A stretch of DNA of 64,000 nucleotides from Mobula birostris (Eukaryota): positions 53,740,935-53,804,934 of the forward strand of contig NC_092376.1 in NCBI RefSeq assembly GCF_030028105.1. The letters are read 5' to 3'. Shown piece after piece: positions 6,183 through 42,737 of this stretch. The notes under the pieces were generated by a model. The model did no database searches. It was not told the DNA's origin and worked only from the letters and a program-made list of their open reading frames with translations. The stretch's first letter is position 1. Each line of letters opens with the position of its first letter. The position numbers were made by a program, and so were the translations under genes.

Positions 6183-7453
6183 CTGAAATGCAAAATGTCA
6201 AATCCGAGGTCTCAGTTCACAATCTCCTCCCTGCATTATGCATTAGTCAAAAGACCTCCATCGATGTTACTTTTATGAACAGTTTTTAGGGATATACTCC
6301 ATGTGCCCATTCTGAATGGCTTTTACTTGTTCTCACACGCCAATCCTCCATAAATTTCAAACAGCGAGTCTCGTCACAGTCCACTGGAGAGCAATCTACA
6401 TTGGTTGAAGGGGTTAAGGCAGCTATCAATTGCTGACCATAGCCCACCATTTTCACTCCACTTCCATCATTCTCCAATGGGCCACATGATCTAATGGATC
6501 GCATCATCTAAATGAAACTTGGAAACACAGGCTTTAAAGGAGCACTACCCAACGAGTCACCCTAACAAATAATGGTAGATTTTTTTAAACTGTTAAGTAG
6601 AGTATTGGAATGGTTTAAGACCCTGCCCAATTTTCCTATCAGATTAAGTAACTTGAAGTTGGCCCTATATCATGGTACGGGGCAATGGGGTGGTTGTAGA
6701 ATACGATGATATGAGATTTTTTTGGGCAGTAGATTAACTACTCAGATTTTTTTTCAGTGGCCCTTTAGCAAGTTATGCAACTTTAATATCATGAACTAGA
6801 TTTTTTAAATACTAAAAGACTTGTGTATCATACCAGATTTATTGTTCACTGAACTATTTGCACTGGTGAGCTTGGAATAAAACTGAACTACTGCAAGATG
6901 GCTAATTTACAAATTTGTACACTCTGAGGAAGTCATTGTTTTCTCTTTTTTAAGGATAACTTCAATGACATATCCTGAAGTCTCAGTCAGTTCCGCATAC
7001 TGATTCCTAATTATATGTGCAAATTGATGGTTCATTTGCCCTCAGGGCAATTGCATTTTAATTTTAAAAACAATTAATTGACCAAAATGTTTTGAGGTAT
7101 TTTTACGAAATCAGAACTCTTCAAATAAATTAATTTTTCTACAGGCTTATACATTTCACTCCTGTATTTTAGATTAGATCAGCAACAGATTCAATAACTT
7201 ATTAATGCATTAATTTCACTGTACATCTCAGTCACAGTCATCACACTAAGTGATAAACTATATATGTTAGTAGCTAGATAATAGCAACTATGAACAATGC
7301 TAAGCAGCATAATTTTGTAATAGAACTTATCCCCAACAACAATATTCCACTAATCACAATCAATGTTAGAAAAGCATTACCTTTTCTAGCCAGTTCTTTC
7401 CTAACTGGTTCTGTAAACAGACTTTGTCATTGTTAGGTATTTATATTGGCAGG

Positions 7454-7694
7454 TGTTGTGTATTTAATATGTCAGTAATATTTGTGTAATCTTGTATACG
7501 TATTGTTTGATTAAGCATCCTTCATAGTTAATATAATTCATCATAGGTTATATGTAAAATTACGTGAATTTCATACGTCATCACAATACCACATGATACA
7601 TGTGTGCTTCACTTAAACGAAACACAAAGTCAGACGCACAGTTAGGATTCTTGTGTTTCCCTTTGAAGTAGTTTAATGGTTACAAAGCATTACA
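7454..7694 (+). repeat. 5' LTR
   Basis: tgttgtgtatttaatat...gcattaca; aligns by eye to 15436-15667, 16138-16368 and the reverse complement of 42492-42737. Confidence 0.9.
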
Positions 7695-7695
7695 C

Positions 7696-7706
7696 TGGCA
7701 ATGAGG
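7696..7706 (+). promoter_or_regulatory. Primer-binding site, degenerate TGGCGACGAGG (tRNA-Ser(GCU)-type)
   Basis: tggcaatgagg immediately 3' of the LTR; the copy at 16370 reads tggtgatgagg. Both are CpG-decay products of TGGCGACGAGG, complementary to the 3' end of vertebrate tRNA-Ser(GCU). Confidence 0.7.
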
Positions 7707-7922
7707 TATTTTTTAAAGGAACCCGAGGTGGCTACTGGCCTGTTGAAGTGCAGCAACATGTACAAACTAAAAAACAAGCAGCAAGGTACAGCAAGTAAAA
7801 AAAAATGAAGCCTAGCACGTGCAGAGACAGTCAAGTGGAAAAAAAGGGCAGTAAACAGAAGAATTCACAAGTTCATAAAGACTTGAGTTCCAGGTGATAA
7901 TAAGCATTAAAAAAAGAGCAGA

Positions 7923-8695
7923 AATGGCTGGCTACATCAGAAAGATTGTGCTACAGAAAGATTAAGAAGGCACATTTGATTACAGAGACAAAATTGAATT
8001 GTAGATAGGAATAAAAGTGAGATAAACAAAACTGCAATATCCAAACAAAAACCAGCCTTCCTGAACAAGTTGTGTTACCATTGTGACATACACCATAAAA
8101 GCAAATTTAAAGGCAAAACTTGCAGAAAATGCAACAAAGTAGGACACATGCAAAGAGTATGTTGGGCAGACAAAGTAAATGGACTGCACAGAGGAGAGAA
8201 CAAGATAAAAAGTCTGGTTGCCATTTCAAAAAGAACACTAATCTGCACGGTATTGATGAAAAATCTGATAATGATGAGAGTGACAGAGGACTGTGCAGCC
8301 ATGAGATTTATAATGTGAAAACTAGCAATACACAAGCAATATGGCTTACACCAGAAGTAAACAGCAAGTTAACTAAAATGGAACTGGTTCAGCGGTTTCA
8401 GTCAGTCCATAAAATGGGTTTGAAGAGCTTTTCAAAGATACTAAACTGAAGCCTGCAGATACCCATCTAAGGACTCATACTAGAGAAAAGATACCTCCTG
8501 TGGGAATGACATTCATAACAGTAAAATACAATAACCAACAGCCACATTGAGCTTATATGTAGCAACAACAGGAGGAGGTGGGGATGAGATTGCCTGAGAC
8601 AACTACAACTTGATTGGAGATCTATCCACCATTTGCATGCCATATCCCCTGCAGTGAAGCCAACTGAAAGCGAATTAAGAAACGTATTTGATTAT
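7923..8695 (+). pseudogene. Decayed gag and aspartic protease region of the LTR element
   Basis: Starts MAGYI; CRKCNKVGHMQRVC is a CX2CX4HX4C knuckle; IWLTPEVNSKLTKMEL precedes the deleted DTG motif; multiple deletions and frameshifts. Confidence 0.85.
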
Positions 8696-8699
8696 GACA

Positions 8700-8862
8700 A
8701 AACTGTCTCCATGCTGTACATCATGAACAGTGGTCCAACAGAGGGCAAACAGGTTCTGTGCCTCTGGTTGGAAAGCATACTGGACCAAGGGAGGACCATG
8801 CAGCTTAGAGGGATGGTGAAAGTGTCGAAAGCAGTGGTCTGACCTCAATTTTTATAGGTAAC
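8700..8862 (+). pseudogene. RBM25: RBM25 retrocopy fragment, segment 1
   Basis: LVGKHTGPREDHA (from 8764) and SSGLTSIFIGN match RBM25 MVGKHLGARKDHP and NCGPTTTVFVGN (RRM RNP2; human sequence from memory). Confidence 0.75.
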
Positions 8863-8863
8863 A

Positions 8864-11800
8864 CATAGAGTCATAGAATAATATAGCACAGAAACAGTCC
8901 CTTTGGCCCATCTAGTCCATGCCAAAGCATTTCAACAGCCTACTCCCTTCGACTGCACCTGGACCATAGCCCTCCATACCCCTACCGTCCATGTAACTAT
9001 CCAAACTTCTCTTAAAATATTTAAATCAAACTTCCATGCACCACTTGCACTGGCAGCTAATTTCACATTATCATCACTCTCTGAGTGAAAATGTCTCCCC
9101 TCGTTCCCTTAAACTTTTCAACTTTCACCCTTAACCTATGACCTCTAGTTTTAGTCTCACCCAACCTCAGTGGAAAAAAGCCTGTTTGTATTTACCCTAC
9201 CTATACTGCTCATAATTTTGTATACCTCTATCAAATCTCCACTCAATCTTCTACGTTCTAAAGAATACAGTCCTAACCTATTCTTTCCTTATATCTCAGG
9301 TCCCCCAGACCTGCATTATCCTTGTAAATTTTCTCTGCACTCTTTCAACCTTGTTTACATCTTTCCTATAGGTAGGTGACCAAAACTGCACATAATACTC
9401 CAAATTAGACCTCATCAATGCCTTATACAATTACAACATAACATCCCATCTCCTGTACTCAGTACTTAGATTTATGAAGGCTACTGTGTCAAAAGCTTTC
9501 TTTATGACCCTATCTACCTGGGCCACGACTTTCAATTAATTACAGACCTGTATTCCCAGATCCCTTTGTCCTACAGCACTCTTCAGTGACCTGCTGTTCA
9601 CTGTGTAAGACCAACTCTGTTTGGTCCTACCGAAGTGGAAGACCTTGCATTTGTCTGCATTGAGCTTCATCTGTCATTTTTCAGCCCATTTTTCCAGCTC
9701 ATACAAATTCCTCTGAAAGCCACGATAGCTCTCCTCACTGTCCACTACATCCCAATCTTGGTGTCACCTGCAAATTTGCTGATCCAGTTAACCACATTAA
9801 CACACAGATCATTGATACAGATGACAAACAACAATGCACCCAGCACCGATCCCTGAGGCACGCCAGTAGTCACAGGCCTCCAGTCAGAGAGGCTTCATTT
9901 ACTACCTCATCCTGATGCAGAGTGACTGAACTTTCTTGACCAACCTCCCATGGTCAAATACCTAACTAAATCCACGTAGACAACATCCATTGCCTTGCTT
10001 TCATCAACTTTCCTGGCAACTTCCTTCTAAATCTCTATAAGATTGGTTTGACACAACCTACCACTCACAAAGCCATGCTGACTATTCCTAATCAGTTCAT
10101 GTCTATCCAAATACTCATATATCCCGTCTCTTAGAATACTTTCCAATAACTTACTCACCACTGATGTCAGGCTCACCAGCCTATAATTTCCTCCTTTATT
10201 TTTCGAGCCTTTCATAAACAGCAGAACAACACTGGCTATCCTCCAAACCTCCAGTACCTCACCCGTCACTAAGGATGATTTAATTATCACTGCTAGGGCC
10301 CCTGCAATTTCTGCACTTGCCTCCAACAGGGTCTGAGGGAACTCCTTGTCAGGCCCTATGACTGATATCTGTAGGACCCCTTTGGATTTTCCTTCACTTT
10401 GTCCGCTAGAGCAACCTCCTGATTTCTTTCTAAAGTCATCTCTTGCAATTTTTGTATTCCTTAAGTACCTCATTTATTCCTAACTGTCTATACCAGCTAC
10501 ACACTAACTTTTTTTCTTAACCAGGACCTCAATATCTCTTGAAATCCAAGGTTCCCTATATCTGTTATCTTTACCTTTTATTCTGACAGGCACATACAAG
10601 CTTTGTACTTTCAAAATTTCACTTTTGATGGACTCCCACTTACCAAGTTCACCTTTGCCAGAAAACAGTCTGTCCCAATCTATACTTGCCAGATCTTTTC
10701 TGATACCATCAACATTGATCTTTCTCCAATTTAGAATTTCAACCTGTGGACTAGACCTATCTTTTTACATATTTACTTTGAAGCTAATGGCATTATGATC
10801 CCTACGTGCAAAATGTTCCCATACACAATCTTCTGTCTCTTGCCCTATCTCATTCCCTAATACCAGATGAAGTATTTCACACTCTCTTGTTTGGACTTCT
10901 ATATGCTGATTAAGGAAACTTTCCAAAACACATTTGACAAACTCTATCCCACCTAGTCCATTTATAGTATGACAGTCCCAGTTAATATGTGGAAAGTTAA
11001 AATCACCTTATGTTTCTTGCTACAGTCTGTGATTTCTCGACAAATTTGTTCCTTTGAATCCTAGGGACTGTTAGGTGGTCTATAATCTAGACCATTAACA
11101 TAGACATGCCTTTCTTATTATTTACTTCCACCCATAAAGCCTCACTAGATGAGTTCACCAGTCTGGCTCCACTGAGCACTGACATGACATTTTCCCTAAG
11201 TAGTAACGTCGCCCCTCCCACTCTTGCGTCTAAAACAGCGGATCTTTGGAATATTGTGCTGTCAGTCGTCCCTCCTGCAGACAAGTCTCACTAATGGCTA
11301 CAATATCATAATTCCATGTATTGATCTATGCCCTGACCTCATCCACCTTTCCTATAATATTTCTTGCATTGAAATATATGCAGCTCAGGTCACAAGTCAC
11401 CTCATGTTCAACCTTTTGATTCCTGACTTTGTCTGAGGTCTTAACAACATCTGTCTCCACAACCTCTCCACTATCTGTTCTGGCACTCAGGTTCCCATCC
11501 CCCTGCAACTCTAGTTTAACCCCTCCCACCCCCACTGCAGCATTAACAAACCTTTCCGCTAGGATAATGGCACCTCCTCCAGTTCAGGTGCAAACCGTCT
11601 TTTCTATACAGGTCTCACCTTTCCTGGAAGAGAGCCCAAAGATCCAAAAATCTGATGCCCTCCCTCCTATACCAACTCCTTAGCCACATGTTAAACAGTA
11701 TGCTCCTTCTATTTCTGGCCTCACTAGCACACAGCAGTCCTGAGATCACAACTGTGGAGATCCTGCCCTTTAACTTAGCACCTAACTTCCTGCACTCACT

Positions 11801-11975
11801 TTGCAGAACCTCATCCCTCTTCCTCTGTTATTGTACCTACGTGGACCACGATCTCTGGCTGCTCACCTGCCCACTTAAGGATACTGAGGACTGGATCCAA
11901 GATGTCCTGGACCCTTGTAATTGTTCTTGTTAATCAATCCTGATCGCTGATTGACTGCTTCTCAAATGACTTTCT
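8864..11975 (-). mobile_element. Old CR1 LINE (ORF2 plus part of the ORF1 esterase), inserted in the RBM25 fragment
   Basis: 3' tail catagagtcatag at 8864; ORF pieces NYRLVSLTSVVSKLLESIL...SQHGFV and LSCIYFNARNIIGKVDE; many frameshifts. 5' boundary approximate. Confidence 0.88.
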
Positions 11976-11979
11976 CAAA

Positions 11980-12273
11980 ATATCTTAGAAAGTTTCTAAT
12001 ATATTAATCCGGCTTTAGGAAGAGAGTTTGAAGAGCTTCAGGAAAGTTGCAAACATTCAGCTTTTGCAAGTATAAAGAACCAGAAAATACTTTGCATGCA
12101 TTAAGGTTATTGCATGGGAGATGAAAGGCTACTTGTAAAGTAGATGTAAAGATCAAAGCCCAGCTGGATGAATGAAAGGCCAAAAAGAAAGGAGTCAATG
12201 GAGATACAAAAACAGAAGATTCATCAGATGATGTTGTGGATGAGAAAACCAAGAGGAGAGATCAAGTTGTAAA
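11980..12273 (+). pseudogene. RBM25: RBM25 retrocopy fragment, segment 2 (RRM)
   Basis: IS*KVSNILIR, ASGKLQTFSFCKYKEPENTLHALRLLH and VDVKIKAQLDE*KAKKKGVNG...VDEKTKRRDQVVK match RBM25 ISEKASDMLIR, ASGKLQAFGFCEYKEPESTLRALRLLH and VDAKTKAQLDEWKAKKKASNG...LDEETKRRDQMIK. Stops and indels present; no introns. Confidence 0.92.
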
Positions 12274-15002
12274 GACCATAAGACCATAAGTCAAAGGAGC
12301 AAAAGTTGGCCATTCAGCCCATTGAGTCTGCTCCGCCATTTTATCATGAGCTGATCCATTCTCCCATTTAGTCCCACTCCCCCGCCTTCTCACCATAACC
12401 TTTGATGCCCTGGCTACTCAGATACCTATCTATCTCTGCTTTAAATACATCCAATGACTTGGCCTCCATTGCTGCCCATGGCAACAAATTCCATAGATTC
12501 ACCACCCTCTGACTAAAAAAATTTCTTCACATTTCTGTTTTGAATGGGCACCCTTCAATCCTTAAGTCATGCCCTCTCGTACTAGACTCCCCGATCATGG
12601 GAAACAACTTTGCCACACCCACTCTGTCCATGCCTTTCAACATTCAAAATGTTTCTATGAGGTCTCCCCTCATTCTTCTAAACTCCAAGGAATACAGTCC
12701 AAGCGCGGACAAACATTCCTCATATGTTAACCCTCTCATTCCTGGAATCATTCTAGTGAACCTTCTCTGTACCCTCTCCAATGTCAACACATCCTTTCTT
12801 AAATAAGGAGACCAAAACTGCCCACAGTACTCCAAGTAAGGTCTCACCAGCGCCCTATAGAGCCTCAACATCACATCCCTGCTCCTATACTCTATTCCTC
12901 TAGAAATGAACGCCAACACTGCATTTGCCTTCTTCACTACCGACTCAACCTGGAGGTTAACCTTAAGGGTATCCTGTACGAGGACTCCCAAGTCCCGTTG
13001 CATCTCAGAACTTTGAATTCTTTCCCCATTTAAATAATAGTCTGCCTGTTTATTTCTTCTGCCAAAGTGCATAACCATACACTTTCCAACATTGTATTTC
13101 ATTTGCCACTTCTTTGCCCATTCTTCCAATCTATCCAAGTCTCTCTGCAGACTCTCTGTTTCCTCAGCACTACCGGCCCCTCCACCTATCTTCGTATCGT
13201 CAGCAAACTTAGCCACAAAGCCATCTATTCCATAATCCAAATCGTTGATGTACAATGTATAAGGAAGCAGCCCCAACACAAACCCCTGCGGAACACCACT
13301 GGTAACCGGCAGCCAACCAGAATAGGATCCCTTTATTCCCACTCTCTTTTTCCTGCTGATCAGCCAATGCTCTATCCACGCATGTAAATTTCCCGTAAGT
13401 CCATGGGCTCTTATCTTATTAAGTAGCCTTATGTGTGGCACCTTCTGAAAATCCAAATATACAACATCCACTGCATCTCCCTTGTCCAGCCTACTGGTAA
13501 TTTCCTCAAAAAATTGTAATAGGTTTGTCAGGCAGGATTTTCCTTTAAGGAATCCATGCTGAGTTCTGCCTATCTTGTCATATGCCTCCACGCACTCTGT
13601 AACCTCATCCTTGACAATCGACTCCAACAACTTCCCAACCACCGATGTCAAGCTAACGGGTCTATAATTTCCTTTTTGTTTCCTTGCCCCCTTCTTAAAT
13701 AGCGGAGTGACATCTGCAATCTTCCAGTCCTCCGGAACCATGCCAGAATCTATCAACTTTTGAAAAATCATAGCTAATGCCTCCGCAATCTCCACAGCTA
13801 CTTCCTTCAGAACACGAGAGTGCATTCCATCTGGTCTGGGAGATTTATCTACCTTTAGACTATTCAGCTCCCTGAGTACTTTCTCTGTCGTGATTGTGAC
13901 TGCGCACACTTCTCTTGCCTGCCACCCTTGAGTGTCCGGTATACTGCTGATGTCTTCCTCAGTGAAGACTGATGCAAAATACTCGTTCAGTTCCTCCGCC
14001 ATCTCCTTATCTCCCATTACAATTTCTCCAGCATCATTTTCTATCAGTCCTATATCTACTCTCTCCTGTCTTTTACTCTTTATATACTTGAAAAAGCTTT
14101 TAGTATCCTCTTTGATATTATTTGCTAGCTTCCTTTCATAGTTAATCTTTTCCCTCTTAATGACCTTCCTAGTTTCCTTTTGCAAGCTTTTAAAAGCTTC
14201 CCAGTCCTCTGTCTTCCCACTAATTTTTGCTACCTTGTATGCCCTCTCCTTTGCTTTAATTTTGGCTTTGACTTCTCTTGTCAACCACGGTTGCATCCTT
14301 TTTCCGTTCGAAAATTTCTTCTTTTTTGGAATATACCTGTCTTGCACCTTCCTCACTTCTTGCATAAACTCCAGCCACTGCTGCTCTGCTGTCTTTCCCG
14401 CCAGTGTCCCTTTCCAGTCAACTTTGGCCAGTTCCTCTCTCATGCCACTGTAATTTCCTTTACTCCACTGAAATACCGACACATCAGATTTCGGCTTCTC
14501 TTTTTCAAATTTCACAGTGAACTCAATCATGTTATGATCACTGCCTCCTAGGGATTCCTTCATCTCAATCTCTCTAATCACCTCCGGTTCATTACACAAC
14601 ACCCAATCCAGTACAGCCGATCCCCTAGTGGGCTCAACAACAAGCTGTTCTAAAAAGCCATCTCATAGACATTCTGCAAATTCTCTCTCTTGAGATCCAG
14701 TGCCGACCTGATTTTCCCAATCCACTCGCATGTTAAAATCCCCCACAATTATCATTACACTGCCCTTCTGACAAGCCTTTTCTATTTCTTGTTGTAATTT
14801 GTAGTCCACATCCCTGCAGCTGTTTGGAGGCCTATAAATAACTGCCATCAGGGTCCTTTTACCCCTGTGATTTCTTAGCTCACCATAAAGATTCTGCACC
14901 TTCTGATCCTATATCACCTCTTTCTAATGATTTAATATCATTTCTTACCAATAAAGCCACGCCTCCCCCTCTGCCTACTTTCCTATACACCATGTATCCT
15001 TG
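12274..15002 (-). mobile_element. Young 5'-truncated CR1 LINE (ORF2 endonuclease end plus RT), inserted in the RBM25 fragment
   Basis: 652-aa open frame 12644-14602 with NYRPVSLTS, QHGF, SGVPQG and FADDTK; (gaccataa)n tail at 12274; gtaaa repeated at both junctions. Confidence 0.95.
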
Positions 15003-15110
15003 GTAAAAGGAGCAATAGAAGGGTTGATAAGAGAAAACGCCAGTGAACTAAATGCACTTCCCAAGGTCAAGATGCAGAAACTAGAAAAAGAAAAAGGAAG
15101 GAGAAGAAAG
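15003..15110 (+). pseudogene. RBM25: RBM25 retrocopy fragment, segment 3
   Basis: VKGAIEGLIRENASELNA...RKRKRKEKK continues exactly where segment 2 stopped (RBM25 IKGAIEVLIREYSSELNA...RKKKKEKK). Confidence 0.9.
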
Positions 15111-15435
15111 GTGTTCTGAGCTGTCAGAACCACTTCTTGCAGTTTCAGAGACAGCTCCTGCAGTGACCACGGAGGAGGTCTCCGAGCCTGAGATTGCTTT
15201 CATAGCCATGGGTCTCACCCACCAGGCAGACTGATCCCCCTTGTCAGGAAGGATGTTTTCCCACGGGAGTGGGAAAGCCTATCCAGAAATTAAATCTTTG
15301 GACCTGAATGGGACAACTTAAAAATTTACTATGCTGTGGATATCTGTATATAGTAGTTATAGTACATAGCATAATGTGTATATAGGTGAGGTACAATCCT
15401 TATTGAGTTGGAGTTTATAGTTAAGCAGGGAAGAG

Positions 15436-15667
15436 TGTTGCGTATTTAATATTTCAGTAATATTTGAGTAATCTTGTATGATTAAACAGTCTTTGTTGTT
15501 TAATTAATTTTGGTTATATGTAAAAATATGTGAATTGCATACATCATCACATTACCACGTGACACGTGCGCACTTCGTTTAAAGTAAATGTGAAGTTTGA
15601 CTCACATTTCAGACTCCCATGTCTTCCTTTGAATTAGTTAAATGTTTTGAAGTTGCAAAACATAACA
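15436..15667 (+). repeat. 3' LTR preceded by a polypurine tract and 3' internal sequence (15111-15435)
   Basis: aagcagggaagag|tgttgcgtatttaatatt...aaaacataaca|gcagg. Confidence 0.9.
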
Positions 15668-16137
15668 GCAGGCACCATGAAATCAGAATATTTTATGAAA
15701 GCTCTGTGGGGTGCTCAGTTCATAATGTTCCAGTGTGATTCACTACGAGCACTAAATTATGTTTTATTGGCGGATGCTCACAGAATTGTTTGATAGTTAG
15801 ACAGAGCAGATGTGCTATGTGCTGATATTATAAGCCATCGTGAAATAAGATTGCATTTTTTAACAAACATATTTATCCTTCACATAATCCCACAATGATT
15901 TCATTCAAAGCAAGAAGTATCAAATCTGTCCCTGAGGTGATTTCCTGTTCCAATTTTATATCTGGGTGAGCCAGAATTTGTGTTAATTGTTCAAAGTGCC
16001 GGTTCTATTAGTGAAATATTGGAACAACTACTTCCCCAGGCATCAATTGGAAAGGATTGCTGGTTGGGCAATCCATCCAGCAACAAAATACTTTCATTGC
16101 TCCTATGTACCAGAGAATAAGATTGGATCATAGCGTC

Positions 16138-18779: not shown

Positions 18780-19262
18780 TTCCAGAATCTTATGATTTTG
18801 TTTGATTCCCATTGGTTACAGTTCTTTGCTTTTCAATCCCTGAGCAGTTCTGACAAAGCCGGTTTTCTCTATTCAAAGATGCTTCTTGACCTATTGGGTT
18901 TTCCTAGCATTCTCCCTTATTTCAGATTTCCAGTAAATTAAAAAAAAATTATTTACAGCACCACCAGATTATTTTCTCTCACCTCTACGCTCCATCTATT
19001 TATAAGTCTTCCAGGTTGCCATGACCAAGTCTTTAGTATCCACCCTTAGACAACCCCAATCAGTTTATCTGTCTTCTTCACACTAACACAGACATCCTCT
19101 ATATTATTTCAAATCTTCCCCCTTTCCTCCAAGTTCAAATACGCATGTTCTTCTAAATTTTCACAATTCTGAAGCATCTTCAACTCAAAATATTAATATG
19201 TTTATCTCTCCAGAGATGCTGCCTGACTTACTGAGTTTTTCCAGCACTCTATTTTTATTTCA
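18780..19262. mobile_element. Very degenerate Penelope-like ends
   Basis: agatgctgcctgacttactgagtttttccagca and agatgcttcttgacctattgggttttcctagca resemble the PLE terminal repeat seen elsewhere in the window. Confidence 0.5.
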
Positions 19263-19409
19263 ATCTAATGATTCACTTTTAATTTATTCTCAGTTAGTAA
19301 GAAATAAAATTAGCTTGAGTTCCAAAAGCATTTTATTATCTTTAATGTTGCACAGTATATTGGGAATAAAATAGTTCAGCCACTTCTGCTTCATGTTTTT
19401 TTCTTTCTG

Positions 19410-19744
19410 GCGTGTGCCTGCATGCGTGCGAGTTTGCGCGTCTGCGTGTGCGTGCATGCGCATCTGTGCGTGTGCGTCTGCATGTCCATGCATGCGTCCA
19501 TGATGATGTCTTTTTCATAGCTTATACAAGGCGCAGAGCAAGAGAGAGAGACTGAGTGGCGCGCCACTCCTCACACAGACGTCTTTGCAATATTTTCCCT
19601 TTATTTTACGAGGTTGAGTTGTGATCTCAACACTCAACCCAGCACAGATGGAAAGCGTACTCGGGAGTGGACCCGACTAGTTTCGAACCCAGGAACCTCC
19701 GCTCCCGGGTCCGGCACCGATGTCATTGCACCACCAGCCGGCCC
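19410..19744 (-). mobile_element. tRNA-derived SINE with (GT/GC)n microsatellite-like tail
   Basis: Reverse strand begins gggccggctggTGGTGCAATGAc (A box) ... GGTTCGAAAC (B box); 19410-19500 is a degenerate tgcg/tgtg repeat. Confidence 0.6.
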
Positions 19745-19749
19745 TTCTG

Positions 19750-20346
19750 CTTCATGTTGATGGAGACAGACGTGAGAAGCATGGAGGAACATCTGGAGTA
19801 ACTTCTGAAATGCCCGGTTCACTGCCGCTGCTACTGTCCGATCGAGAATCTCCGGAGGGGAAGGCCCCAAATCCTCAGCTTTGCCTGTTACTGGCAGCTG
19901 GGGCTGGGGTCGAAGCGCCCGGCAGAGATGGCGCTTGGTGCTCAGTGTCAGAGGGCCGGTCGGAGGCTCGAAGTATTAGGACAAACTCAGAGTCGGACTG
20001 TGGTCGGGTGCTTCCAGGATGCTGCATCGGCTAGTTTGTGGCACGGGAAGCTCATGGCAGGGAGAGTTTTTTTCCTTCTACCATCTGTGTGAGATAATGG
20101 GATTTTCGAGAGACTTTGAGACTTTTTTTTACCATACTCATGGTCTGTTCTTCATCAAATTACGGTATTGCTTTGCGCTGTTGTAACTATATGTTATAAT
20201 TATGTGGTTTTTGTCAGTTTTTCAGTCTTGGCCTGTCTTGTGTTTCTGTGATATCACACTGGAGGAACATTGTATCATTTCTTAATGCAAAGGCATTACT
20301 AAATGACAATAAAAGAGGACTGTGTGTCCTCATAATCTAATCTAAT
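19750..20346 (+). repeat. Non-autonomous LINE-like repeat with (TAATC)n tail
   Basis: GC-rich 5' part, then aataaa and ataatctaatctaat at the 3' end. Confidence 0.5.
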
Positions 20347-20577
20347 GTTCTGATGGTAGTGTATTGGAAAAAAATCCATTATCAGTCTGGGCCCATCGAA
20401 TGTTTAACCAGGAGAGTGAAAGATGCTAACTTTGCTGAATACGGACTTCTCATACGGGTCACGAAGTCCTAAGTATTCATTCCTTCTCCAGCAAAGAAAC
20501 TTATTCTTTGGCATGCATCCAGCAGCCAATAAGAAAAGTGATGACACAAGGGAGGGTGGGGGAGGGTGAATATCAAT

Positions 20578-20905
20578 GGGCATAGTGACACAGCCGGTGG
20601 AACTGCTGCTTTAAAACTCCAGCAACACAGGTTCAATCTCGATCACCGGTGCGTGGAGTTTGCATGTTCTCCCTGTGACTGAGCGGCTTTACTCCGGCTG
20701 CTGCCACTTCCTCCCACATCCCAAAAATGAGCGCAGGTTAGTTGGTCAACTTGCCACTATCGGTTGTCTGTCATGTCATAATCTTGGAGGCAATGATGGG
20801 AATCTGGGGAGAATAAAATTGGTGAAGGTAAAAATAAAATAGGTGCCTGATGGCTGGACTGGACTCAATAGGCCGAGGGGCTCATTTCAGTCCTGTCTGA
20901 CTGTG
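20578..20905 (+). mobile_element. V-SINE (HE1-like)
   Basis: tRNA-like head with ggttcaatct; V-domain tggagtttgcatgttctccctgtgact...ttcctcccacatcccaaa; CR1-like tail ggactcaataggccgagggg. Confidence 0.8.
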
Positions 20906-21059
20906 TCTTAAACTATTAAAAATAAATTATAGCTTTGACAGGAGGCAAGTCTCTTCCCACAGCTATCAAACTCACACTGCTGGGCTTTGGGAGGTACAGG
21001 GTTAGCACAATAATTCTGTATTGCATCCACATTCAACCTTCATAAAAGGTGTCATAATA

Positions 21060-21555
21060 GTTTATAGTGTCAAGTTCTGGGTGTTACATTTTATAAAGGC
21101 ACAAAGTCAAGGATGCAAAATGCATTTAACAAAATGCTTCTAGAAAGGTGGGGCTCCTGTTGTGCAGATAGTCCAAAAAATCTGGTGTTGTTTCCATTCG
21201 AGCAGAGGAGACGGCAAGGGGATCTGACAGAATATTTAAAATCATGAAGGGATAGATACAGAGAAACTATTCCCTTTGAGAGGGGTCAAAGATGAAAATA
21301 GTGGCAAAAGGACCAAAAGTGACAGAGAGAATGTTTGTACTGTAAATGTTTAGAGTCTGGATTTATTGTAGTAGTAGTAAGAACGACAGGTTCAATTACA
21401 GGATTCAAAAAGGAAGCTGAATAAGTATCCGAAACAGAAGAGCTTACAAGGTTAAGGAAGCAGGGAGGAAGCAGGGAGTGGAACAAGATGGATACTGTAC
21501 GTAGGAATGGTGGTAAGACCCAAGGCTAAATACTATGCTGAATCATTCCGTGATT
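21060..21555 (+). mobile_element. Degraded CR1 3' end
   Basis: ggtgttgtttccattcgagcagaggagacggcaaggggatctgacagaatatttaaaatcatgaagg encodes the LF-LEQRR-GDL-KIM signature of CR1 ORF2. Confidence 0.65.
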
Positions 21556-21973
21556 CCAAATATGAGCAGGCATGGGACAGTTCCAGGCAGGGGAATTGAA
21601 ATAAAGGCAGTATCAAATAAAATGTGTCAGGTTAGCAACATAACCACATCAAATCTCACTGATGAAATTTAATTTTGAAAGCAGAATCATGCGCCTATTA
21701 AACATTATTTTCAGATCCTTTCTCCTGACTGTTACAATCTAGATAGCTGTTGCTTGGCATAACAGGAATGGGTAAATAAGGAGCACAATGGATGAACGTA
21801 TCGGGTCCTCATTTAAAAGGTCTTTGTCAACAGAAGCGACTGTGTATTGTGCTCCTATCAAGACATCTCAATGGGCAGGTGGGTGATGCATGGATTAAAA
21901 TGTGATCAATATTCCCCCTATTCTTGCAACTGCTACAATATTCAAATGACATTAATGAGAAAACATCACTTAC

Positions 21974-22080
21974 ACATTGAGCGGTAACTGGGTCTTTGGT
22001 GCTGTTCCTTGCTCCCCTGCGGCAGCACCCGGTCTTGGTCCCACGGCACCACCAACTGCATTGGCAGTAAGAGACGAAGC
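21974..22080 (-). CDS. SH3RF3: SH3RF3 internal coding exon (107 bp, phase 0/2); reading frame absent from the ORF track
   Basis: Acceptor gtatttttag|GCT and donor AATGT|gtaagt. Translates ASSLTANAVGGAVGPRPGAAAGEQGTAPKTQLPLNV, resembling GEQGTPPKVQLPLNV of mammalian SH3RF3 (from memory). Phases join the 354-bp and 171-bp exons in frame. Confidence 0.92.
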
Positions 22081-22529
22081 CTAAAAATACACCAGGCACA
22101 TGGATTTAATACAACAATCACAGGCATTACTTCTAAATGTTTATCGTTTTGAGCTTCTTGAAGTTGATGTTTAGTTAGTTGACAATTAAAAAGACCAAAG
22201 TATCCAGTTAAGGGAGCAGTGCCAAACCAGTTTAGAGTCACTTTTATTCTTTCCATAATCAACAAGATCACAGAAGCAGACAGGGTACTGTGCTGTTAAC
22301 ACTTTTCCAATATTGTTTTCCAGTCAATGATACCTCCATTTATTGTACACACCCAGAGGCTCAGCCACTGAAACTCTGCAAAATGTACATTTCCATTCAA
22401 GGTGAAGATTGATATGTCTAATATTTGTTGAAATGACTAACTCTGTGATATGATTTAAACCTCTCCAAAAATATTACAAAATACAAACAAATTTAACTGT
22501 TTGGTTGAGAAATCCTTAGTAAAGAACAA

Positions 22530-23232
22530 AATTTTACATTGTATTTCGAGAGGATTAGAATATGAAAGTAAGGTTATAATGCTGAGGCTTTATAAGTCAT
22601 TGGCCAGACTGTATTTTAAGTATTGTGAGCAGCTCTGGGCCCCTCATCGAAGAGTACGTGCTGGCACTGGGGAGGGTCCAGAGGAGATTCATGAGAAAGG
22701 TCTAGGAATAAAAGGGTTAATTTATGAGGAGTGTTTCATGGCTCTGGGCCTGAACTTTCTGGTGTTCAGAAATATTGTGTGTGTGTGTGTGTGTGTGTGT
22801 GCGCGTGTGTGTGTGCATGTGTGTGTGTGGTGGTGGTGGTGGTGGGGGGGTGAATCTTATTGAAACCTACCAAATATTGAAAGGCTGAGACAGAGTGGAT
22901 ATGGAGAGGATGTTTCCTTTTGTGGCAGAGTCTAGGACCAGCGGTCACAGCCTCAGAATACAAGGTCGTCCCTTTGGTACAGAGATGAGGAGGAATTTCT
23001 TTAGCCAGAGGGTGGCACATCTGTTTAATTCATTGTCCCAGACAGCAGTGAAGGCCAAGTTATCAGGTACTGTATATATAAAGCAAAGCTTGATAGGTTC
23101 TCGATTAGTAAGGGCATCAAAGGTTATATGAGAAGGAAAGAGAATGGGGTTGAGAGGGAGAATAAATCAGCCATGATCAAAGGGCAGAGCAGACTAATTC
23201 TGCTCCTATATCATATGGTCTTATGATGTTAT
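22530..23232 (+). mobile_element. CR1 3' end with an internal microsatellite
   Basis: ISRGLEYESKVIMLRLYKSL and RMFPFVAESRTSGHSLRIQGRPF...NFFSQRV; tail tatcatatggtcttatg. Confidence 0.9.
22777..22851. repeat. (GT)n / (GGT)n / polyG compound microsatellite
   Basis: Directly visible. Confidence 0.95.
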
Positions 23233-25409
23233 GAAACTGAGATGAAGCACATTGCTCCCTGCAGTAAGAGGCCATAGACAGAAGACAGAAAGTGAATTCA
23301 AGAGAACTTTCTTTATACAGAGAGTAGTGACAAAGTGAGACTTCCTTAGTGAGCAGCTGGGGCAGAAATGATGTAAGCATGCAAGATTAGTGGATAGCTT
23401 GACAAAGCAAAAAGGAGCATATGACGTGAGCAGAGTCGGTTAATGTCACAATAACTCCTAGCTTGCATTGAGGGTACAAGTTGATAGATTCATTGGACCA
23501 AGGTGAATTGTCGCATAAATGAATGATTCTCTGCATTAATGATAACAGCCTCTGATATTATTGCTCAGATCATTTTGGTTTTGGTGAGTGATCACACTGT
23601 TTACTGCCAGGCACTGGCTGCACCACTGTCAGAATGATGAGCCATACTAACCATGGGGGAAGAACTCCAATCTGAGTGGAGAGCAGGTAACTGAGGATGT
23701 GTTGTGTTTCTCCAGTGCTTTTCTTCAGCAGTTGCCCTGGCTAACACCGGGAGAGTTCCCGTAACACTGACCACTTTCCTGCAGTTAACAGCCGCAGCTG
23801 GGTCTGTGCAGGTTGTTGTTTTATGCACAGATCTGGGCAAATGTACGTCTCAACCAAGTCTTTCTGTGCAGGTCATTGGATTCGTCATCGCTACACGCAG
23901 TGCCTGTGTTAAGCAAAAGACTGCGTACCAACTTTCACTCATAAAACTGACAGCACAGTTCAGCTGTATGACAATGTAAAGGGTCAGGCAGGTGGACCCT
24001 GAAATTCCAGTGGATTACTTCATGGCAATATAAGGCGAATTTTCCACAGTATCTGTCTTGCCTTTGGCCATGCTGGATGTTTCTGCAGGGATTCCGCACA
24101 CAATCTTCCCGCTGGCAGAGTGGCTCTCACCACTTTAGCTGGACTCAGACCCCCGGCACCGGTGAAACCCAGCCCAGGCTCTCAGCTGGCGTCGAGCTTG
24201 GAAATTCTGAACGTCTTTACTTTCAAAATCTTTCATTAACACTCTGGGCAGGCAAATTGTTTTGACAAATTTCTACAATAAAAGAGCTAAAACACATACA
24301 CACTCATTTAGAACCAATAACATAATTAATACCAACTAATGAATTGCAACATAACTTGCCTTTCCCCAGGAGCTGAAACCTCCTGTTCGTTGGTACAAGG
24401 GCAGCCTCCCTTGCGCCAGGACTGACCCGGTGCAGGTTGAGGGCAGAAATGCCTGTTGAGAGCTGGAAGTGTGTGAAGAATTACAATGTCCGTTAGGGCT
24501 CCATCAGGCAGGGTGGGAGATGCCGTGGGCCACACCAATGCTGAGAGCCCAGGCTTTTGGGGGGATTACACTGGGTGTTAGCACTGGGGCAAAACATTTA
24601 ATCTATCTTTTCTAAAAAAGAATAGATACTTTAAGTGAAGAACTTAATTGGATTGAATTGTTCTTCACATTTTCATTTGTATCGACATTCAATATTTGAA
24701 GCAAGTGATTCAGATGTGAATTTTGGAATAATGTGCATTTTAATATGCTTTACTAATACAGTTGTCCATTCATTCCTTTTGAAACTTATAACCATGGAGA
24801 AATTTTGCTGCAGACTCCCAATGCCAACACTATTTAATTTCTCCAGCAATTATTCTCTTTGATATCTAATAACATTGTAGCATTACTCCGGAACAAAAGA
24901 AAACTGAAAATATTATTGCCTAGCAATCTATCTCATACTGCCTTGCATGATTGACTTGTGCCAGGATCACATTTTCCATCATGATCCCAGTGCAGTAATA
25001 CAGAGATATTTTCCCTTGGCGTTGTTTCCTAATGCTCGCGGCAACGGGGTCTTGAATAAATATAATTGAATCCTGCTCAGCTAATCATACTTCACCACGC
25101 CCCTCTACAAAAAGCCACGGCTCTACTGCAAATGATATGACTTTGTTCAGAAGGAGTTAGAAATGGTGTTTTTCTCAGAGTGACCTCAAGATCCTAATAG
25201 GTGAGGTCCACAAAAGAAAATAGGGCAAGATATGTCAAGTGAGAGCTTTAAACCCTTGAACTTCAAACTGGGTAATATATTGACTCAGTTGTTTACATAC
25301 CTTCACTCTCAGTTAGGCAGACACCAACGCTCCCCACAAACCACTTCACCTCTCCCTCACTGTCCATGCCCTGACTCCCACAAAACACATGCACATGCAG
25401 ACACACACA

Positions 25410-42491: not shown

Positions 42492-42737
42492 TGTTATGTT
42501 TTGTAACATCAAAACATTAAACTAATTCAAAGGAAGGCATGGGAGTCTGAAATGTGGGTATAGCTTCGTGTTTACTTTGAGCGAGATGTGAGCATATCAC
42601 GTGGTAGTGTGATGACGGATAAAATTCACGTGTTTATACATATAAACTGTAATTTCATTATTTAAATGAAGAATGCTTATTCAAATAATATATTAACAAG
42701 ATTATTCAAATATTACTGAAATATTAAATACACAACA
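42492..42737 (-). mobile_element. Solo LTR of the Gypsy/Mag-like family with 5-bp TSD
   Basis: ttcct|tgttatgttttg...aaatacacaaca|ttcct; reverse complement of the LTR at 15436. Confidence 0.92.

Follow-up and report, generated by a model that had tools for sequence, protein, structure and literature searches.

The window considered here is a stretch of 64,000 nt from Mobula birostris (positions 53740935-53804934, on contig C8; the genome searched comprises 4.0 Gb), and at 7454-15667 it holds a decayed Ty3/Gypsy element with two long terminal repeats (LTRs) and an exact 5-bp target-site duplication (TSD). Between the LTRs are pieces of the spliced message of the host gene RBM25, which stand in the place of the reverse transcriptase (RT), RNase H and integrase.

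The element at the locus

A first-pass annotation of the window had described two homologous LTRs flanked by GCAGG, a primer-binding site (PBS), a gag zinc knuckle and a protease remnant with no RT, RNase H or integrase behind them, and in each of these respects it is borne out (Table 1). The LTR pair has a Kimura two-parameter (K2P) distance of 0.267 over 212 columns. The full fish Gypsy polyprotein P0190 matches the window only at 8073-8538, through the gag knuckle and protease in its residues 196-360 (residues 196-235 align to the knuckle at 8073-8180), and no P0190 match to the RT, RNase H or integrase of Gypsy occurs in the window. The zf-CCHC match in the gag remnant lies below the Pfam cut-off. 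The copy was rightly called dead: it is decayed, its RBM25 pieces contain deletions and most of gag has been lost, when other copies carry ~500 nt more and the family possesses the whole of gag. The PBS matches tRNA-Ser(GCT) in all four loci scanned, and is exact in one and within 2 mismatches in eight of 21 copies. Matches to the 3' motif of this tRNA are, in 73 of 85 cases, scattered along contig C17, perhaps as a repeated tRNA cluster unit. The two insertions that split the RBM25 part are later LINEs (long interspersed nuclear elements), as had been proposed, the second with an RT domain and a TSD of its own; the name CR1 given to both is presumptive. Two further LTRs of the RBM25-carrying family lie in the window, one at 16138-~16395 (+), followed by a primer-site-like stretch and cut by a LINE, and one at 42492-42737 (-) that looks like a solo LTR.

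Table 1 Features of the RBM25-carrying element in the window.
Feature	Position	Strand	Remarks
Left TSD GCAGG	7449-7453	+	exact copy of right TSD
5' LTR (TG...CA)	7454-7694	+	72% identity to 3' LTR
PBS	7696-7706	+	complement of tRNA-Ser(GCT) 3' end, 2 mismatches
Leader and gag remnant with zinc knuckle	7707-8230	+	zf-CCHC E 0.002; P0190 match
Protease remnant and linker	8231-8694	+	P0190 residues 254-360 at 8231-8538
RBM25 piece 1	8695-8863	+	7-nt shared word, last 10 nt of E3, E3b, part of E4
Later LINE-type insertion, may be composite	8864-11979	-	RT-like minus-strand frames; breaks exon E4
RBM25 piece 2, RRM region	11980-12273	+	rest of E4 (partly deleted), E5, E6, start of E7
Later LINE insertion	12274-15002	-	Pfam RVT_1 E 3e-23; own TSD GTAAA
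RBM25 piece 3	15003-15109	+	E7 to residue 246, then E9 and E10 scraps via two deletions
3' end of pol (after integrase) and 3' untranslated region	15110-15422	+	continuous with integrase in pol-bearing siblings
Polypurine tract	15423-15435	+	sequence; equal position in other copies
3' LTR	15436-15667	+	pairs with 5' LTR
Right TSD GCAGG	15668-15672	+	exact copy of left TSD
RBM25 exon labels (E3, E3b, E4 and so on) follow the numbering of this analysis.

The cargo and its parent gene

A tblastn search with bichir RBM25 matches the window at 8755-8862, 11957-12274 and 15000-15056, in order and in one sense, with residues 73-109, 114-223 (E 4e-22) and 221-239, respectively, and the match is significant. 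Compared with the spliced exons of the host itself, the three pieces are 81, 83 and 85% identical; the first corresponds to host residues 49-111, the second reaches residue 222 and the third continues to 246 before jumping to 286-292 and 403-406. The order and sense that had been ascribed to these pieces therefore hold, although the third is not collinear past residue 246. The insert begins at 8695 and not, as first given, at 8700, and an extent of roughly residues 40-240 becomes one of 49-246 together with scraps that run beyond the noted end to 406. Four exon junctions can be read directly in the window copy (8704/8705, 8752/8753, 12053/12054 and 12202/12203), a fifth having been lost to a small local deletion. 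There is no run of at least 7 A within or beside the RBM25 part and no TSD around it, in agreement with the earlier description of an insert with no introns, no polyA and no duplication of its own.

The parent gene was located by protein search on contig C1 at 154.44-154.49 Mb, with its last exons at 154.48 Mb and 11 upstream exons mapped, every one with AG/GT ends. A genome search with the Pfam PWI domain was abandoned as a route to it, having returned two other PWI genes, probably SRRM1 and PRPF3. Two antisense LTRs of the RBM25-carrying family also lie on contig C1, at ~154.379 and 154.406 Mb, which places them 64 and 36 kb upstream of the earliest coding exon identified in RBM25.

The captured stretch runs from 10 nt before the end of E3 to 28 nt into E10, and so spans nine exons and eight junctions of the parent gene rather than a single exon, compressing ~28 kb of gene that encodes residues 49-406 into 1,072 nt. 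The E9 and E10 scraps of the window copy indicate that the original capture extended to residue 406. Taken successively, the eight junctions are contiguous in 30, 30, 32, 38, 38, 4, 5 and 12 of 39 copies.

Among the captured exons is the 48-nt E3b, which is annotated in shark RBM25 too and was not seen in any bony-vertebrate RBM25 protein examined; its presence suggests that the mRNA captured was alternatively spliced. In the parent gene E3b is found at 154450900-154450947 of contig C1, where it is in-frame, contains two ATGs and corresponds to the protein start in the shark annotation. It could possibly represent a cartilaginous-fish cassette or an alternative start. A stop-free frame of 196 residues from one chimeric copy retrieves RBM25 (E 5e-62), the best match among shorter proteins being shark RBM25 at 77%. 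As this shark protein has E3b too, it lends indirect support to the cartilaginous-fish host proposed in the first-pass annotation. When the commonest codons of the copies are compared with host and shark over 204 amino-acid positions, all three are alike at 187, five have no shark residue, the copies have the host's residue and not the shark's at six, the shark's and not the host's at one, and they stand alone at five. This agreement with the host points to a capture from the host's lineage after its split from that shark, as judged with one outgroup.

Breakpoints and pol-bearing siblings

The 3' tail of the element was used to search for siblings and led to 39 other loci, 30 of them chimeric and nine without RBM25; in five of these nine the end of integrase leads into the tail, and in the other four a common internal deletion does. 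Five loci (L151, L152, L156, L160 and L164) agree with the chimeras in LTR, gag and protease and continue into pol, and the Pfam domains found in the pol-bearing siblings are RVT_1, RT_RNaseH, Integrase_H2C2 and rve. The order protease-RT-RNase H-integrase is thus present in RBM25-free siblings, whereas the chimera lacks everything from RT to integrase: the insert takes the place of ~3 kb of pol and does not interrupt it.

Both breakpoints could be located against these siblings, natural LINE-free copies serving in place of a sequence from which the insertions had been excised. At the entry point element and mRNA have in common the 7-nt word TGCCACA, which has decayed in the window copy, and at the exit point the 9-nt word GAGAAGAAA (window 15101-15109). 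The chance of such words at random switch points is 5e-4 for the entry and 1e-5 for the exit (4e-5 in the purine-rich part). The 5' junction is identical in most of 52 aligned rows, and of 40 rows 25 continue after the entry word with host-like bases and none with element-like ones (12 are other and 3 unanchored), which argues against splicing from a donor in the element. The frame is kept at the entry and does not match that of the pol tail at the exit.

Four loci (L154, L155, L160 and L150) represent a second non-autonomous derivative without host cargo; they share one deletion, which extends between the integrase zinc finger and the purine-rich word at which RBM25 is exited, and this reuse suggests that the word may be a switching hot spot. 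Matches to pol occur in four of 40 chimeric loci; three are parts of other insertions and run on the opposite strand, and the fourth is L061 (contig C13 35066700-35074700), a short-form chimera that re-enters RNase H-integrase after ~45 nt of tail. L061 is possibly a recombinant of chimera and helper, which would fit co-packaging; nested elements that later underwent a deletion between them could also give rise to it.

A search for siblings with Integrase_H2C2 was set aside, since none of the 30 loci fetched from its 150 matches resembled the RBM25-carrying family. It did reveal another Gypsy family with dozens of copies of identical score on many contigs and an open frame of 1515 codons, a young and probably recent burst unrelated to the RBM25-carrying family.

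Copy number and history

The middle RBM25 piece gives 2526 first-look candidates genome-wide, and all 40 that were scored matched, the 39 other than the window copy at 79-85%. Most of the scored loci have the layout LTR-gag-protease-RBM25-tail-LTR, which measures ~2.6-3.2 kb when insertion-free, and are without the LINEs of the window copy. The recurrence of this LTR-to-LTR layout at unrelated loci with other TSDs removes the concern that the two LTRs in the window might stem from independent insertions. Among 17 copies with callable ends, the window copy included, six have TSDs with agreement at 4-5 of 5 positions and no two alike, and shuffled pairs give a mean of 0.63 and at most 4 in 2000 trials.

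The exact 22-nt chimeric 5' junction occurs 145 times in the genome and the corresponding junction of RBM25-free siblings 308 times, with 0 occurrences for the control in each case. Chimeras number ~2,800 if the exact count is scaled by the 2 of 39 sampled copies that match exactly (95% range 840-23,000), and ~1,300 if it is scaled by per-base identity. The first-pass annotation had suggested that further LTR-gag-RBM25-LTR copies with different TSDs would show the chimera itself to have transposed, and such copies are found at many loci, their number being estimated at one to three thousand. With 145 of 453 exact junctions, chimeras make up roughly a third of the family; first-look candidates put them at about half (2526 versus 5278). 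An impression of chimera dominance, drawn from the 30 of 39 tail matches, was rejected as biased by the chimeric query, the junction counts giving about a third.

The median K2P of LTR pairs is 0.23 in 16 chimeric loci and 0.27-0.29 in three RBM25-free loci. The tree built from 46 tails is star-shaped, with terminal branches of close to 0.1, and does not separate chimeras from RBM25-free siblings (8 group changes against a shuffled mean of 7.5, with no starred branch). The stretch from E7 to the tail retains 72-556 nt in 49 measurable copies and falls into classes of ~90, 93 and 201 nt with common breakpoints; 27 of the 49, among them the window copy, are of the shortest kind. Chimeras and siblings are products of a star-like burst in which the cargo was lost stepwise.

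The family is also present in other organisms. In six of these 0.18-0.45 of the sampled words of one copy are present, and in four of the six the family is represented by 19,047-24,575 contig pieces that span all 30 bins, most of the RBM25 positions listed being found in about a hundred or more distinct contigs; the copies there are many and diverged. Among the pieces listed, X5 has ones that bridge the 5' junction, X5, X9 and X11 have ones that bridge the 3' junction, and those of X12 cross exon junctions only. The family probably either predates the separation of these organisms or spread in each.

Selection on the cargo

Selection was assessed in 39 of ~2,500 candidates. Relative to the commonest letter of each column, transitions per opportunity are 2.22 for synonymous, 2.20 for non-synonymous and 2.33 for stop changes, and the variants shared by copies show no deficit. 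Their mean identity is 87.6% to the host and 83.4% to each other. The RBM25 cargo decays neutrally: no sign of purifying selection is seen in the 39 copies, with the reservation that a star tree is weak for the master lineage.

Proposed origin and alternatives

The interpretation that we favour, with a probability of about 0.9, is that a non-autonomous Ty3/Gypsy family arose when template switches replaced RT-RNase H-integrase with spliced RBM25, and that the chimera was then copied in trans by the enzymes of its siblings. Both switches likely took place within one reverse-transcription event. In this scheme a host mRNA of the isoform with the 48-nt exon would have been packaged together with element RNA. 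During minus-strand synthesis RT would have left the pol tail for exon E10 by way of the 9-nt word, copied the mRNA over 1,072 nt and gone back, by way of the 7-nt word, to the protease linker. The resulting element would have kept its LTRs, PBS, polypurine tract and gag, and with these retained its packaging, copying and integration in trans would have been possible. The RBM25 piece would have travelled as a passenger whose purine-rich repeats were trimmed over later rounds, and the window copy would afterwards have lost part of gag and taken up two LINE insertions. Words common to element and mRNA at both breakpoints are as template switching predicts, and their recognition against pol-bearing siblings upholds the original proposal of template-switch transduction in preference to a LINE-made pseudogene.

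Several points weigh against this account. Neither the switch nor the mobilisation in trans is visible, and both are events that we infer. The siblings are as decayed as the chimeras, and no intact helper was seen among those examined. The copy number is extrapolated from just 2 of 39 sampled exact junction matches, the 39 copies studied were picked by their similarity to the window copy, and only six of 17 callable copies keep a TSD at 4-5 of 5 positions, the copies being old and several ends poorly called. Finally, the tail tree is poorly resolved and its bootstrap not settled.

The alternative that survives best, though it is unlikely, is that the cargo was useful, with either an in-frame Gag-protease-RBM25 fusion (RRM and charged repeats) or the RNA itself aiding packaging, export or escape from silencing. 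The in-frame 5' junction and the natural stop-free frames that lead from the protease linker to the RRM (L069, L071 and L079) would suit such a role, as would the retention of the RRM part while the repeats were lost and the preservation of the frame in the most frequent deletion classes, those with 90, 93 and 201 nt left; 23 of the 49 copies measured are in frame. However, the 39 copies bear no sign of purifying selection, and the differences between host and commonest codon, 17 synonymous and 6 non-synonymous, fit host-side evolution and CpG decay. The pattern of cargo loss is explained by deletions between direct repeats. An RBM25-free deletion derivative has multiplied too (4 of 39 tail matches), and RBM25-free junctions exceed chimeric ones, 308 to 145. 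The selection test has low power over master copies, the tree being star-shaped. It is doubtful that a fusion made by master copies helped the pol-less element to reach a third of the family, with its frame kept through deletions. If true, the RNA-binding domain of a host splicing factor would have become part of the element's polyprotein, as a retrotransposon counterpart of a gag-onc fusion that serves the element, and the RBM25 pseudogenes left behind in their thousands could supply small RNAs directed against an essential gene.

Considerably less probable is a read-through capture, the route of retroviral oncogenes, in which an element resident in RBM25 gave a transcript that was spliced to host exons and required only one 3' switch. 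The 5' junction does lie just 10 nt before an exon boundary, and two LTRs of the family are found upstream of the first coding exon identified. Yet both LTRs are antisense to RBM25, and the three bases before the boundary are those of the host E3 end in 25 of 40 rows and those of the element in none, which indicates that the E3/E3b junction was already present in the mRNA. Slightly less credible again is a LINE-made processed pseudogene of RBM25 that inserted into a Gypsy element and was amplified with it in trans. LINEs are abundant in this genome and the end product would likewise be intronless and multi-copy, but the insert substitutes for pol rather than splitting it, its two ends are cut within coding exons remote from the mRNA's 3' end and rest on words common to the element, and both polyA and a separate TSD are absent. 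Segmental duplication of a single chimeric locus at the DNA level would account for the breakpoints common to all copies and can be practically discounted, given that the sampled copies are on many contigs, similarity ends at the LTR ends and TSDs differ.

Known systems and significance

Capture of host mRNA by template switching is an already published mechanism. The available part of Tan et al. 2016 (PMC5131818) describes LTR-mediated retrocopies and their further rounds as non-autonomous elements. Like the RBM25 chimera, these are internal, tail-less and doubly truncated mRNA pieces that replace part of the element open reading frame (ORF), and their median microsimilarity at switch points is 6 bp, compared with 7 and 9 nt here. 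The traits given there (no introns, ORF replacement, no polyA or TSD, microsimilarity beyond chance, further rounds) are all found in the RBM25 chimera. Those of a processed pseudogene (a polyA at the 3' end, a TSD of its own and truncation at the 5' end only) are not found in the insert, and an ORF kept under purifying selection, the mark of a functional retrogene, is not found in the 39 copies. In the same available part, nine young Drosophila retrocopies occupy 18 insertion sites, two of them at more than one site, in contrast to one old capture with an estimated 1,300-2,800 copies and nested deletion subfamilies.

Among vertebrates, the part of PMC4299795 at hand reports KIT-ligand in the crocodilian CrocERV29 and nectin3 in CrocERV31, with nine and six copies whose ORFs are kept under purifying selection. 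These too are vertebrate LTR elements with host mRNA that multiplied after capture; they differ in being retroviruses, with nectin3 replacing env, where the RBM25 chimera is a Gypsy element minus pol with neutral cargo. The HERV-K capture of FAM8A1 and maize Bs1, in the form in which PMC5131818 cites them, also hold host mRNA pieces between LTRs, the FAM8A1 fusion points being microsimilar, and concern other element classes and other hosts. The fish K02A2.6-like Ty3/Gypsy elements (P0190 and P0186), which are 42-50% identical to the protease-linker region of a sibling, have a single ORF for Gag-protease-RT-RNase H-integrase and are autonomous, with no host cargo. The RBM25-carrying family may belong to the Mag clade of Gypsy, a putative placement by resemblance (single ORF, two knuckles).

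No report of an RBM25-carrying Gypsy family was found among the papers listed in a literature search that did not extend to Repbase and Dfam, which may catalogue it. The main text of the VGP preprint, as far as it was available, makes no mention of RBM25; its supplements may list retrocopies per gene.

What sets the RBM25 family apart is therefore not a new mechanism, for it reveals none, but the scale and the completeness of a readable record. In this family the capture of an mRNA by a vertebrate Gypsy element has been naturally recorded, and parent gene, helper family, the two switch points and the subsequent trimming are all legible. Its scale is about two orders of magnitude beyond that of the published vertebrate cases compared, which in the parts of those reports available reach at most nine copies, and one gene may consequently make up a large share of the retrocopies of this genome. 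Pipelines that discard repeat-masked candidates, as in the available text of the VGP preprint, could miss such retrocopies. The family preserves an old mRNA isoform with a 48-nt exon, and offers thousands of presence/absence markers common to related species.

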